Of a stretch of 64,000 bases of DNA, positions 33,001 through 39,000 are shown one piece after another. Position 1 is the first letter of the stretch. Each line of letters opens with the position of its first letter. The stretch covers positions 128,001 through 192,000 of the forward strand of contig CAVYVF010000023.1 of the NCBI GenBank assembly GCA_963771885.1. The letters are read 5' to 3'. The position numbers are program-made. The stretch is from Candidatus Bathyarchaeota archaeon. Lineage in GTDB: Archaea; Thermoproteota; Bathyarchaeia; TCS64.

Positions 33001-36000
33001 TGTCGCAGACGAGCCAGTCAAAGCCCATGTCCGCGAGGTACATCGTCATATCAGGGTGGCCGACGGTCACCCACGTCCCAATCGCCGGCTTGCCGGCCTT
33101 CAGCTTCTGCTTTACAAGGTTTCTCATGGCGTAGAAAGTGACGGTCTGTTCTTAATACAGTTGCCCGTGGGCGTCAATCCTAAATGATGAACACCTCCCT
33201 CTACTTCGAGGGACAGGTTTGAGTTTCAGCGGGGAGAAAGCCTTCGGGTACATGAAAAAGCTCGCAGAAGACATTGGGCCACGGCCCAGCGGCACAGAAA
33301 CGGAGAGGAAAGCCGCGGAGTGGATAATGTCAGAGTTCAAGAGGCTCGGCTACGACTCCAGAATAGAGGAGTTCGACGCCTTCACGGGGATAATTAAGGC
33401 GCAGAAGCTGGAGGTATTAAAACCCTACAAGGCAGAGGTCGCCTGCGAGGTCATGCCCCTTTCGGGAAGCACCGGCGCGAAAGGCGTGACCGGAGAACTG
33501 CTCTACCTCGACACATATGACGAGGAGTACATCACCCCCGAGGTGAAGGGCAAGATCATAATCACCGGCGGAGCCCCCGCCAACAGGGACCGCGCCTTCG
33601 CCCAGCTCAAGAAGTACAAGCCAGCGGGCATCATAATCATCGAGTCCACACCCAAGGCGATGGCGAAGAACCTATGGGGTAGCCCAACCTTCCGCAAGAA
33701 GTATGTCGACATACCCATGGTTAGGGTCGCCTTCGAGGACGGCGTCAACCTCGTAAAGTCGGGCGCCAAGACGATGCGCCTCGTCGCCGTCGCCGAGGAG
33801 AAGACGATTAAGACCCAGAACGTCGTCGCCGAACTCAAGGGGACGACCCGCCGAGAGGAGATCATAGTAGTCTGCGGACACTACGACACAGTATTGGAGG
33901 TCCCCGGCGCTGGCGACAACGCGGGAGGCACAGCCATCACCCTCGAACTCGCACGCGTCTTCAAGAAGAAGGGCACGAAGAGGACGATGCGCTTCATCGC
34001 CTGGGGATGCGAGGAGCTCGGACTGCTCGGCAGCCGGGAGTACGCGAGGAGGCTCAGGACGGAGAGCGAGGCGGAGAAGAAGGCGGACGAGGAAGCCGTC
34101 ACCGAGCTCGACAACACCGTCCTCTGCCTCAACCTCGACGTCCACGGCGGCATGATAGGCACGAACGTCGCCAAAGTACTCGGCCCACCCGAGCTAACGA
34201 CATCCGTGAAGCTGCTCAGCAAGGAGAAGGGCACGGTCTTCATCGTCTCAGAGGGCGTCTACTCATCCGACGGCACGCCTTTCTCCGCAGTCGGGATCCC
34301 CAGTGTCTCACTCAGCAGGGAGACGCCCACAAACCTCCTCATGCACAGCAGAGAAGACGTAGAGAAGTGGCTCAGCCCCGAGGCACTGGAGGCACACGGC
34401 CTTTTCGCCGAGGAGTTCCTCACCCGCTACGCCGCCGAGGCCGCCGCGTGGCCCTTCGAGAAGACGATACCCGAAAAGCAGAAGAAGGAAATCGAGGACT
34501 ACTTCAAGAAAGCGGGGAGAAAGCTCCCCTAGTCTTCTTCCTCGGGGTTCTCCTCAATCCAACTGAACTTCTTCTGCAGCGTCGAAGGGTAGTAGCTACG
34601 CCAGTCGAAGCCGACCCTGCGCCCCCAGTCGAGGTAGATGCGGGGGTCGACGTAGTTCTTCAGGCTTGTGCCGAGGTTATAGTCGCGTGTTATCTCCTGC
34701 GCCTCGACCTGCAGCCTCATGCGCTCGACAGTCTCTCTGTCGCGCTTCCGCTTCTCCTCTAGTTGCTTCTTCAGCTTGAGCGAGGCTGTGACGTAGGCGT
34801 TCTTGAGCTTGCGTACGCGTTCGCGAGCCGCCTTCGTTGCCTTACGGGCGGCGTCGAGCCTCTTCTTCGGCGCCTTGAGCTCGGCTCCGGCCTTCTCTGC
34901 CTCAGCTAGCTTTGTCCTCTGAACCTCTTCTTTCCCCTCAGCCTCGACTAGTCTTTTCTCAGCCTCGACCAGTTTCTCGCGGTACTTGTTCTCCTCGTCA
35001 GTGATCTTAGCGCGGAGTGCCTTCTCATCGGCTGATGCCTTGGCTTCGAGTTGCTTTAAGTGTGCCTTCTTTTTTTCGAGGCTCTGCTGCCAAGTCTTGG
35101 GGATGGTGCGCTTGTGGTTGCAGATTATTGCAGCTTCGAGGTTGGCGCGCAGGGCAGCTTGGCGCTTAACGTAGTCGGGGTCCTCGGGCTTGACGATCTC
35201 TTTGGCGAGTCTGCCGCCGACCGCGTCTGTGGCGTATAAGGTCCTGAAGACCTTGGCGCTGAGCCCCTCCATAATCTCCTTTAGGAAGTCGCCCACGTGG
35301 CCCGAGTTTATGCCCTCGAAGAGGCTATCCTTCCCCGCCCCGCTGGCGAAATCGCGGAGGTTGGCCACCACCTTTGGGGGCAGGGGGGCTGTGATGTTCA
35401 TCGGCACCGAGTCCTTACCGAGGAAGTTGAAGGTGACAGAGCCGTCCCTGTTGAAGCAGACGTGCTCCGGGCGGAGGGTGCTTGCGCCCACCGTATCGGC
35501 CTCGTCCTCGTCGTCCTTCTCGTCTCCGACTCTGAACTTGAGGCGGTCGATGAGGTAGCAGACCGTCGCCGTCTTGCGCCGCTTGAGGTCGGCGGTGGTG
35601 AGGTTGCCCTCTATGTGTGCCTTGACCTCGTCGAGTTTCTCCTTTAGGGCACGTGCCTTCTCGTACTTCTCCATGTCCTTCCTCTGCTTGAGGAAGCTTG
35701 CGTCGCCGGGCCAGACGTACTTCTTTTTGCCACTGAGCTTGTCCGTCCAGCGGGCAATCCACATTGTGCCGGGCTCCCAGACTATCGCCTTCCAGTTGCC
35801 CGGCGGGTGCGGGGCGTCGGGGCTGAGGTTGAGCTCTATGTCCCCGTACTGGGGACCCCTCTTCCACCTGCCCCTCCACGGGTGCTGGCCGCGGCCCATG
35901 AAGATACTGTTTGGCTCCACGTTGTAGTTGCCGAGTTCCATCCGCTGCCCGTCGACCGTGGCGTAGCCGTACTTCTCCTTGTTGGCGTCGCGCTGCGCCT

Positions 36001-39000
36001 TCCGCTCAGCTGCCTGCGCCTTCTTCACCTCGGGTGGGAGGTTCTGCTTCTCCTCGCGCTCGCGCTGCACGACCCTGATTATGGCGGTAAAATCTACTTC
36101 GCCAGGTTTCAGTTCGAGGCCGAGTGCCTTGCCGAAGTCCTCGTGGAAGTTCTCAGCGAACTTGGGGTCGTCGACGTAGGGCGTGCCGACCTTCTTCGCC
36201 CAGGCGACTGCTATCTCCTCCTGCTCGTCGCTAAGGCTGACGGGCTGGCCCTTGATGTTGACTGTGAATCCGCGCGCCTTGTACTTGGGGGGGACGATGA
36301 CGCCGTTGTGGTGGAGTGTGTTCACGCTGTGCACCGGGGGGCTTTGATGAATACCGGGTGGCCCCTCTATAAAAATTACCCAAAGACTGCGGTCATCAGG
36401 GGAGCGCCTTCTCCAGGTCGCCGACGCTGAGCATGGCGCCGAAGCGCTCCGCTGGCTTCCCACCCCTGAAGATGATCACAGTTGGAATGCCCATGACGTT
36501 GTACTCCTTCCACTTCTCCGTGTTTGTGACGTCCATCTCGTAGTAGTCGGCGCCCGTGTGCTTCTCGGCGAGCGCCTTGAACTGTGGCTTGATGACCTGG
36601 CAGGCTGGGCAGCCCTCGCTGCTAAATAGGAGGGCGACGGGCCTGCCCGCCCTGAGCACTTTCTCTTGGAAGTTGCCGTCGGTGATCGGGGTGATCGTCT
36701 TGGACTCGCCCCTGCTGAAGAGGTCCCTGAGCTTCGAGAGGGGGCCCGGGTACTTCTTGTAGGCGACCTGGTAGCCGACGTCCTCTATCGCCTTCTCAAT
36801 GGCTGTGAGGGGGACGGTATCCTCCATCGTGACCTTGATTGTCTTCTTGAGGTAGTTGCCCTGCGCCTTCGTGACGCCAGGGACCTTCATCACTGACTTC
36901 TCCAGCGTGACGACGCATGTGGGGCAGTCCATCCGGGTGATGCCGATCTCCTTTGTGACCTCGGGCATGGCTAGTCCCTCGGCTTCCACCTGCGGAGCAG
37001 TAGGCTGTTGTGACCACTGTTATGCTGCTGAGGGCCATGGCGCCCGCGGCGAATATCGGGTTCATCTGTATGCCCCAAGGGACGAGGACGCCCGCGGCGA
37101 CGGGTATCAGCGCCGTGTTGTAGGCGAAGGCCCAGAACAGGTTCTGCACTATCTTGCTGTATGTGCGCTTGCTCAGCTCGATGGCGGTGGATACGTCCTC
37201 CAGGTTGTTCCTGATGAGGATTATACCGGCGCTCTCGACTGCTACGTCGGTTCCGCTGCCGAGGGCTATGCCCACGTCGGAGGCGGCGAGGGCGGGCGCG
37301 TCGTTGACGCCGTCCCCAACCATCGCGGTTACGAGGCCCTCCTTCTGCAGGTCCTTTATGACGCCGACCTTGTCCTCAGGGAGGACCTCAGCGCGGAACT
37401 CGTCGATGCCTACCTGCTTCGCGATCGCCTCGGCTGTGCGCTTGTTATCGCCCGTAATCATGACGACCCTGAGGCCCAGATCCTTGAGCTTCTTCACCGC
37501 CTTGGGGGCGTTGTCCTTTACCTGGTCGGCGACGGCGATGATTCCCGTCACCTTCCCGTTCATCGACACGAATGCAAGCGTCTTGCCCTCGTCGTAGAGC
37601 CTCTCGGCCTTCGCCTTGATGTCCTCGGGGAACTCGGCCTTAGTCTCCTCCATTAAGCGGCTCGTGCCGACGACGTAGTGCCTCCTCCCGATGTCGCCCT
37701 TGACGCCCCTGCCGGCGAGCGCCTCGAAGTTCTTAGGCTCGTAGAGTTTGAGCTTCTTCTCCTCAGCCATCTTGACGACGGCCGCGGCGATCGGATGCTC
37801 GCTCAGCTTCTCAAGGCTTGCGGCGTGGGAGAGGGCATCGTCCTGGTCCTCGGCCACTATGTCCGTAACGGCGATCTCGCCCTTGGTGAGGGTACCCGTC
37901 TTGTCGAAGGCGACGGCCTGAAGACTACGCGCCTTCTCGAGGTATTCGCCATTCTTGATGAGTATACCGTTCTGTGCGCCGAGCCCCGCACCGACGAGTA
38001 TGGCTGTGGGCGTGGCTATCCCCATTGCGCAGGGGCATGCGACTATTACGACTGCGACGAAGGCGGTGAAGGCGACGCCGAAGCCAGCGCCTACGACATT
38101 GTTCCAGACGATGAACGTTGTCACTGCGATGATGAGTATAGCGGGGGTGAAGTATGCGGCGACTGTGTCGGCGAGGCGCTGTATCGGCGCCTTACTGAGC
38201 TGCGCCTCCTCGACCATCTGGACGATCTGCTGGAGGGTCGTGTTCATACCGATCTTGGTGACGTCCATCTTAAAGCTGCCCTCCCTGTTGATGGTGCCGC
38301 CAATGACCTCGTCGCCCACCTTCTTGGAGACGGGGACGCTCTCGCCGGTGATCATGCTCTCGTCGATGCTGCTGGCACCATCAACGAGGACACCGTCGAG
38401 CGGGATGCGTTCTCCAGGTTTGACGCGGAGTATGTCCATGGGCATGATCGTCTCAACGCCGACCTCCTCCTCCTTGCCGTCCTCCTTGACTATGCGCGCC
38501 ATGGGGGGCTGCAGGTCGAGCAGCTTGCGAACAGCCTCGGATGCCCTGCCGCGTGCGACCTCCTCGAGGTACTTGCCGATGAGGATGAGGCCGAGTATCA
38601 TCGCGGCAGCGTCGAAGTAGACGTCCATGCTCGGCGCCCACTGGGGGAAGAGGACGACGAAGGCGCTGTAGCCGTATGCGGTCGTCGTCCCGATTACGAT
38701 GAGAGTGTCCATGTTGGCGGTCCTCGCCTTAAGCGCTCCCCAGGCGCCGCGGTAGTATCGCCACCCGGCGATGAACTGGACGGGTGTACCCAGCAGGAGC
38801 CCCCAAATGTGGTGGCTGAAGAGCGGCGGCTCCGGGAGGAACATCATGATCATCAGGACGAAGCCGAGGGTCAGGCTGAAGATAGCGAGGTTCCTTAGCT
38901 TCTTCAGCTCGACGTCGGGGTGCTGAAATGTCAGCATGCAGCCCTCGCTGCAGAAGTAGTAGGTCTTGCCGCCCTGCTCCACCTTGAAGGCGGCGTGCTC

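Follow-up and report, generated by a model that had tools for sequence, protein, structure and literature searches.

How does an archaeal cell handle the topology of its DNA when the sole type I topoisomerase found in its genome is a eukaryote-like Topo IB? The gene for this enzyme lies in the window analyzed here, a stretch of 64,000 nucleotides from a Candidatus Bathyarchaeota archaeon (positions 128,001 to 192,000 of contig CAVYVF010000023.1, assembly GCA_963771885.1; the genome is called G000 below). Every cell is often said to possess a type IA topoisomerase, and a 2021 review states that all Archaea contain at least one (PMC8185306, section 8). The genome-wide survey's note had claimed that G000 and its whole genus lack this enzyme family. 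For the importance of Topo III in archaea, it credited a review with the phrases "almost all" and "main type"; these phrases are absent from the available text of PMC8185306, and no passage to match the note's statement that Topo III could be deleted in Sulfolobus islandicus was found in the available text of its section 8.

Type IA topoisomerases are absent from the genome and its genus

Membership in the type IA topoisomerases (Topo I, Topo III, and reverse gyrase) was judged by the PF01131 (Topoisom_bac) core, which holds the catalytic tyrosine. In G000, which is 92.24% complete in 23 contigs, PF01131 gave neither matches nor first-look candidates even at E<=10, and the control was positive in 14/14 reference genomes, as the survey's note had reported. 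Not one of the 18 genomes from its genus, a group of sediment archaea, contained a match over the cut-off, whereas 54 of the 61 genomes of all other genera in the order did (54/79 for the order as a whole), and these covered 13 of the 14 other genera. The counts are identical to those obtained earlier, and the shared deletion junction described below adds support to the genus-wide loss. The Topo III proteins of the sister genera are ordinary, scoring 350-405 bits with PF01131, and the core was present in 366 of 401 genomes of a class sample. Four weak PF01131 matches (11.7-14.2 bits) were spread over three genomes of the genus, all below the cut-off, and two of them fell in a small protein of ~85 aa. 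They were rejected as chance matches; a Topo III profile specific to the order recognized none of them (best E 0.51).

This order-specific profile, built from 10 Topo III proteins of the same order, was also run with all filters off against every piece of 25 aa or more in the six frames of G000 (56,211 in total), and no remnant was detected (best E 0.32). Likewise, tblastn against the whole genome recovered nothing (best E 0.13), and neither method found a hidden or decayed Topo III in the 15 junction loci described below. A hidden or decayed gene was therefore rejected for all the sequence covered. The Toprim domain (PF01751) exceeded the cut-off in G000 solely in a 442-aa frame and in a stand-alone Toprim protein of 132 aa. 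No N-terminal Toprim fused to a type IA core was seen among these matches, and both proteins were rejected as type IA candidates, as neither carries the core. The 442-aa frame holds Toprim-family domains alone, and we read it as a putative DnaG primase.

The ancestral Topo III site is an empty junction

The sister genera share a conserved block, hisS-endA-TopoIII-C, in which endA encodes the tRNA-splicing endonuclease and C is a small ORF (119 aa) with no family match. Topo III adjoins ORF C in 12/12 sister loci, and the full order of the block is seen in four of them (three times in genus g12 and once in g4). In G000, the gap from endA to C measures 126 bp and lies in the interior of a 498-kb contig (Table 1); a NucS gene adjoins this locus. 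In 15/15 genus loci recovered, which come from 15 of the 18 genomes and include the most divergent members, endA likewise adjoins C, hisS lies further out, and endA and C are spaced about 80-350 bp apart. The junction marker gene was not found in G001, G002, and G008 using ORF C as the query. Because the Topo III site is assembled through without the gene in 15 of 18 genomes, the genus-wide loss of type IA is a real deletion and not a gap in the metagenome-assembled genomes (MAGs).

The survey's note had further claimed that the loss is shared by hardly any genome of the order outside the genus. This claim needs one qualification: G065, of the sister genus g12, shows a clean deletion at the same endA|C junction, and this deletion arose independently of that in the genus of G000. 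Two other genomes were not counted as further losses, as their loci stop at contig ends (ORF C itself stands at the contig end in G072, and the Topo III-flanking gene lies 126 bp from the contig end in G040). For G048 and G097, a search with ORF C did not resolve the locus.

Table 1. Positions of the retained topoisomerase genes and of the deletion junction in G000
Feature	Position	Strand	Basis
Long eukaryote-like type IB topoisomerase	window 34529-36463	-	one open frame, 644 aa
Topoisomerase VI subunit A	window 49050-50144	-	PF21180 8.3e-54, PF04406 7.5e-13
Topoisomerase VI subunit B	window 50125-51636	-	PF09239 transducer 9.5e-53, weak GHKL ATPase match (PF13589)
Deletion junction	C2:378787-379821, outside the window		

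Topo IB and Topo VI are the enzymes retained

Topo IB was the sole type I enzyme found in G000. The interval given for it by the survey's note, 34529-36334 on the minus strand, corresponds to a 601-aa version that begins at an internal GTG; the open frame extends beyond it to 36463. Within the full-length frame, Topoisom_I_N (PF02919, residues 48-251, E 4.8e-50), the catalytic core (PF01028, 256-478, E 6.5e-62), and the C-terminal domain (PF14370, 577-640, E 1.2e-16) make up the three-part architecture of the long Topo IB enzymes. The best solved relative was 6z01 ("DNA topoisomerase I"; E 7.4e-129), with the match extending over the core as well as the N-terminal and C-terminal domains; chains of human Top1 matched at about 1e-74. 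The protein thus resembles both the eukaryotic nuclear Top1 and the Caldiarchaeum-type archaeal Topo IB represented by 6z01. Five motifs, RVGDEK at 268, LGKDS at 305, KVFRT at 361, NHKR at 406, and NYVDPR at 560 (numbering of the 601-aa form), align with identical residues in 6z01 and presumably hold the catalytic Arg, Lys, Arg, His, and Tyr.

Within the genus, PF01028 was detected in 17 of 18 genomes, the same count as that of the survey's note, and in the order as a whole in 71/79; the sister genera therefore carry type IA and type IB side by side. The single exception within the genus is G016, in which neither type IA nor Topo IB was detected. The gene adjoining Topo IB in G000 does not adjoin it in basal members of the genus, and because this neighborhood is not conserved, a loss of Topo IB in G016 looks the same as a gap.

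The two Topo VI genes are adjacent with a 20-base overlap, so that subunit A (TP6A_N plus Toprim) is encoded together with subunit B (GHKL ATPase plus transducer), as in type IIB enzymes. In G000, PF04406 matches subunit A and nothing else. No type IIA enzyme or gyrase (PF00521) was found in the genome, and the Pfam domains bear out the remaining set of Topo IB and Topo VI proposed earlier. G000 therefore has the set of topoisomerases known from Nitrosopumilus, with Topo IB and Topo VI present and neither type IA nor type IIA; across the genus, this set is reflected in 0/18 genomes with type IA and 17/18 with Topo IB. The Holliday-junction resolvase Hjc is also encoded in G000.

Loss of type IA occurs in lineages that carry Topo IB

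Whether other archaea with Topo IB also lack type IA had been left aside by the survey's note. The answer is yes: in a phylum sample of 301 genomes, each at least 90% complete, 52 had no PF01131 (50/50 of family f37, G000, and G097), and all 52 carried PF01028. Conversely, PF01131 was present in every one of the 181 genomes that had no PF01028. This contrast of 52 against none comes from only three or four independent lineages and is not a statistical test. Family f37, with Topo IB in 50/50 genomes, many of them in one contig, fits the profile of the marine group I.1a ammonia oxidizers, and we infer that it represents the Nitrosopumilaceae. Independent deletions can be seen in no fewer than three cases, namely f37, the genus of G000, and G065 within g12; G097 may be a fourth independent loss.

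The combination of Topo IB without Topo IA has been published. Cenarchaeum symbiosum and Nitrosopumilus maritimus have Topo IB and no Topo IA (Brochier-Armanet et al. 2008, PMC2621148), and Dahmane et al. (2016, PMC4824112) concluded that Topo IB must take over some crucial role of type IA there. The loss described in the survey's note is truly genus-wide but has a precedent in these organisms, and the genus is a new lineage of an already published phenomenon. Among the ammonia oxidizers, only group I.1b has topoisomerase IA (PMC4084955), and Nitrososphaera has kept both types IA and IB (PMC8185306, Table 1; PMC4084955). The case of Nitrosopumilus is treated as open in a review from 2024 (PMC10969213). 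No report of type IA loss in Bathyarchaeia was found in the main texts of the literature searched.

The two cases are alike in having a long Topo IB and Topo VI with no type IA and no gyrase, in belonging to the same phylum, and in having relatives that keep both type I enzymes, namely Nitrososphaera among the ammonia oxidizers and the sister genera here. They differ in class, the genus of G000 belonging to Bathyarchaeia, and in the deletion junction, which is visible here because close relatives keep Topo III in a conserved block. The loss in the genus is independent of that in the ammonia oxidizers, as the sister genera and most genomes of the class sample keep Topo III and the block is intact in g12 and g4.

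Sulfolobus Topo III relaxes negatively supercoiled DNA poorly and decatenates efficiently (PMC8185306, section 8). It belongs to the same family as the Topo III lost in the genus, but Sulfolobus retains reverse gyrases, themselves type IA enzymes, and is therefore not free of type IA as the genus is. Eukaryotes keep Top3 beside Top1, whereas the genus keeps the type IB enzyme only.

Discussion

We consider it very probable that Topo III was lost by a clean ancestral deletion, that Topo IB and Topo VI now run DNA topology, and that the loss was enabled by the prior presence of Topo IB. The ancestor of the genus would have lost its single type IA gene cleanly from the hisS-endA-TopoIII-C block, and every sampled descendant would have inherited the empty junction. 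The presence of Topo IB beforehand would have allowed the loss, as indicated by the sister genera that carry both enzymes and by the restriction of type IA absence in the phylum sample to genomes with Topo IB. By established enzymology, Topo IB relaxes supercoils of both signs and Topo VI decatenates replicated duplexes. As far as the gene content goes, the two enzymes may thus compensate for the loss, Topo IB covering the relaxing role of type IA on positive and negative supercoils and Topo VI decatenating fully replicated duplexes. Single-strand passage at hemicatenanes, double Holliday junctions, and RNA topology are jobs unique to type IA. In the genus, the dissolution of hemicatenanes and double Holliday junctions and the handling of RNA topology might be dispensable, or nucleolytic resolution might take place instead, given that Hjc and NucS are encoded.

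It is highly unlikely that a type IA enzyme is supplied not by the chromosome but by a plasmid, an integrative element, or a virus left outside the bins. Elements of this kind are often lost in MAG binning, and an ICE of Ca. Nitrosocaldus cavascurensis does encode a topoisomerase IA (PMC5797428), but integrated copies would bin with the chromosome, and 0/18 independent MAGs contained a type IA piece; moreover, the 50 genomes of f37 without a match, many of them single contigs, argue that life without type IA is viable. We regard it as very improbable, too, that the task falls to a type IA enzyme so divergent that the profiles miss it, or to a non-homologous enzyme from an unknown family that carries out single-strand passage. 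The sister Topo III proteins are readily recognized, so that an extremely divergent form would need to have arisen from a locus that is cleanly deleted, and besides Topo VI subunit A the two Toprim-fold proteins of G000 both lack the type IA core. Profile searches do have limits, and ORF C, beside the old locus, belongs to no family; nevertheless, ORF C is not a replacement, because it accompanies intact Topo III in all of the sister loci. In N. maritimus, two proteins of 124 and 152 aa have been left open as type IA remnants in the 2024 review (PMC10969213). Finally, it is exceedingly improbable that the cells hold a type IA gene missing from the MAGs through gaps in assembly or binning: the genomes of the genus are all MAGs, 69-95% complete (the best in 6 contigs, none closed), and some absences elsewhere in the order are gaps (G072 and G040), but the passage of 15/15 assembled loci across the ancestral site refutes a gap at that locus, the G000 junction lies deep inside its contig, and no over-cut-off fragment of type IA occurs anywhere in the 18 genomes.

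With an ancestral deletion as the preferred reading, the genus becomes a second, independent natural exception to the universality of type IA, and what was a single odd exception turns into a pattern, in which type IA is lost only where Topo IB is present. The chances are about even that, more generally, archaea carrying a eukaryote-like Topo IB can dispense with the supposedly universal type IA enzymes and that the gene is then lost repeatedly. If so, this Bathyarchaeia family would provide near-isogenic natural pairs that differ in whether Topo III is present at one and the same junction, and their comparison could reveal what else changes when single-strand passage is given up. The genus, together with its close relatives bearing types IA and IB, is a basis for testing which functions of type IA can be covered by Topo IB and Topo VI.

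The survey's note had also pointed out that the same genus has largely given up FtsZ. FtsZ_C was indeed present in just 5/18 genomes, but the two losses are decoupled, and a link between them was rejected: genus g11 has FtsZ_C in 0/4 genomes but Topo III in 4/4, and G065, G003, G016, G017, G005, and G002 carry FtsZ_C yet have no type IA enzyme.

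Absence of type IA topoisomerase in genus UBA8941

The type IA topoisomerase (Topo III) profile PF01131 found no match in the genome under study, G000 (92.24% complete, 23 contigs), nor any first-look candidate even at E<=10, and the controls were positive in 14 of 14 genomes. Across the order, 54 of 79 genomes carried the domain. None of these belonged to the genus (0/18 over the cut-off), compared with 54 of the 61 other genomes, exactly the figures from which the genome-wide survey's note had concluded that the enzyme is missing from the genus and kept by most of the order. 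In a class sample of 401 genomes, each at least 80% complete, PF01131 was present in 366 genomes and 126 of 132 genera, with 0/17 for this genus; among the class entries listed, it was the only genus represented by two or more genomes to score zero.

Four hits below the cut-off (11.7-14.2 bits, in three genomes of the genus) were rejected as noise, and a profile built on Topo III sequences from the order itself picks up none of them. Two lie in one small protein of ~85 aa conserved in two genus members, whose 14-bit hits map to type IA profile positions 344-383.

To seek a remnant in G000, a custom profile was made from ten of the order's Topo III proteins and run, with all filters off, against the complete six-frame set of 56,211 pieces of 25 aa or longer. 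Neither this profile (best E 0.32, 10.5 bits) nor tblastn with the ten proteins (best E 0.13) detected one. Only two Toprim-domain proteins in G000 exceeded the cut-off, namely a 442-aa frame carrying Toprim-family domains alone, which we read as DnaG primase, and a 132-aa stand-alone protein of the PRK04017 'hypothetical protein' family. Both were ruled out as type IA candidates since the type IA core is absent from them. The 132-aa protein is reminiscent of two small Nitrosopumilus maritimus proteins (124 and 152 aa) that are question-marked in a 2024 review as possible type IA remnants (PMC10969213).

Deletion of Topo III between endA and ORF C

Next, 20 kb around Topo III was taken from twelve sister genomes of nine genera, and the genes were mapped onto G000. 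Topo III adjoined a small ORF, here called C, in convergent orientation in 12/12 loci, and the full order hisS, endA (tRNA-splicing endonuclease), Topo III, C was observed in four (genus g12 three times, g4 once). ORF C matches no Pfam or NCBIfam family. G000 keeps the same block without Topo III inside a 498-kb contig, with endA and C separated by 126 bp and nothing in between.

Despite the Topo III loss, C was recovered in 15 of the 18 genus genomes (not in G001, G002 and G008). In all 15, endA directly adjoins C across gaps of ~80-350 bp, with hisS beyond, and the Topo III profile gave no match over these junction loci. The identical junction was found in the most divergent members, G003, G007, G016 and G017. 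The genus-wide loss is thus real, and it is a deletion rather than a gap, for which a single excision in the genus ancestor is the simplest account.

That a type IA gene sits on an unbinned mobile element, missed by these metagenome-assembled genomes, is conceivable but improbable; an integrative element (ICE) of Ca. Nitrosocaldus cavascurensis does encode a type IA enzyme (PMC5797428), yet no trace of such a gene was seen across the 18 MAGs. The clean deletion and the ordinary Topo III of the sister genera (350-405 bits) make an enzyme diverged past detection unlikely. An assembly gap is excluded at the ancestral locus.

Features discussed in the text (window positions unless another locus is named)
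Feature	Position	Strand	Remark
Topo IB, open frame, 644 aa	34529-36463	-	one uninterrupted ORF
Topo IB, 601-aa form	34529-36334	-	starts at internal GTG
P-type-ATPase-like ORF, 747 aa, with overlapping 197-aa ORF	36396-39039	-	747-aa ORF: motifs DKTGT and CPC; both ORFs read from translations
Topo VI A	49050-50144		13 kb from Topo IB
Topo VI B	50125-51636		13 kb from Topo IB
ORF C of G000, 119 aa	L031:9463-9822 = G000:C2:379462-379821	-	neighbour of old Topo III site
Stand-alone Toprim protein, 132 aa	L017:1405-1803 = G000:C2:403181-403579	-	PRK04017
Small protein, ~85 aa	L002:1335-1616	-	first genus member
Small protein, ~85 aa	L003:1293-1544	+	second genus member
G065 junction, L053	G065:C9:192-3512		C-endA, hisS beyond

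The remaining topoisomerases

With the type IA gene gone, the remaining set consists of Topo IB and Topo VI; no type IIA enzyme (PF00521) was found in G000. The survey's note had given Topo IB in its 601-aa form, whose start agrees with the end of the upstream ORF at 36396; the full open frame extends further, to 644 aa. The frame carries three Pfam domains: PF02919 (Topoisom_I_N, 4.8e-50), PF01028 (type IB catalytic core, 6.5e-62) and PF14370 (C-terminal domain, 1.2e-16). Its closest solved structure is 6z01, 'DNA topoisomerase I' (E 7.4e-129), followed by human Top1 chains (E ~1e-74). All five motifs RVGDEK, LGKDS, KVFRT, NHKR and NYVDPR were found, which presumably hold the catalytic residues, respectively Arg, Lys, Arg, His and Tyr. 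A search of the whole genome returned this single PF01028 match.

Just upstream of Topo IB lies an ORF of 197 aa that has two CxxC motifs, one metal-binding and the other thioredoxin-like. The start of this ORF is overlapped, in a different frame, by the last ~64 codons of the P-type-ATPase-like ORF.

An archaeal Topo IB was measured to relax both supercoil signs (Dahmane et al. 2016, PMC4824112), so that, from established enzymology, Topo IB could take over supercoil relaxation from the lost enzyme. Topo VI would unlink replicated duplexes. For jobs that need single-strand passage (hemicatenanes, double Holliday junction dissolution and RNA topology), nucleolytic resolution might conceivably substitute; it is available, as Hjc is encoded in G000 and NucS lies beside the old Topo III locus.

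Type IA loss and Topo IB in other lineages

Topo IB was found in 71 of the 79 genomes of the order, including 17 of 18 in the genus; sister genera therefore have both enzymes, indicating that type IA was lost in the genus on a Topo IB background. The genus member G016 (92% complete, 200 contigs) matched neither enzyme; as the Topo IB neighbourhood is not kept in basal members, a gap and a true absence of Topo IB look alike there.

Among 301 genomes sampled across the phylum, each at least 90% complete, PF01131 was present in 249 and missing from 52, comprising family f37 (0/50 with PF01131; many of its genomes are ~1.6 Mb on one contig), G000 and G097, another member of Bathyarchaeia. PF01028 was present in 52/52 of these (f37 50/50), and none of the 181 PF01028-less genomes lacked PF01131. 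Type IA loss only where Topo IB exists is a useful generalisation, drawn from few independent lineages and not a statistical test. G097 (family f17, genus g31; 96% complete, 40 contigs; Topo IB at L050) may represent a further loss; the ORF C query gave no synteny answer for it or for G048.

Within the order, G065 of sister genus g12 (96% complete) also lacks PF01131 and shows the same clean deletion, its C lying 70 bp from endA. Maximum-likelihood analysis of endA and C together (19 genomes, 312 columns) nested G065 in the g12 clade (support 99) beside G074 (support 86), which retains Topo III, indicating a loss independent of that in the genus. The survey's statement that almost no other member of the order lacks the enzyme needs qualifying for this case. 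The absences in G072, where C lies at a contig end, and G040, where the flanking gene is 126 bp from one, may be contig gaps and were not counted as losses.

The literature on archaeal type IA presence is inconsistent. Cenarchaeum symbiosum and N. maritimus are described as having Topo IB and no Topo IA (Brochier-Armanet et al. 2008, PMC2621148), and the 2024 review marks the type IA status of N. maritimus as unclear (PMC10969213). Dahmane et al. state that type IA is missing in some Thaumarchaea and present in all other organisms, and that Topo IB must stand in for some critical type IA function (PMC4824112). Among ammonia oxidisers, only group I.1b is listed with a topoisomerase IA (PMC4084955). 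Topo IB of Bathyarchaeota (MCG) has been on record since 2013-2015 (PMC3930316, PMC4571567), and the literature searched yielded no published report of type IA loss in Bathyarchaeia. The genus loss is a new, independently arisen case of the known type IA-less, Topo IB-bearing set, and an unusually clear one, in that the junction is visible and close relatives still carry Topo III.

FtsZ in relation to Topo III

The same genus had been described as having largely given up FtsZ. FtsZ_C (PF12327) was indeed found in just 5/18 of its genomes, G000 giving no match, versus 48/61 elsewhere in the order, but this loss does not track that of Topo III. Genus g11 lacks FtsZ_C (0/4, against 48/57 outside both genera) and keeps Topo III (4/4), and type IA is missing but FtsZ_C kept in G065 and in five genus members; the two losses are therefore decoupled.
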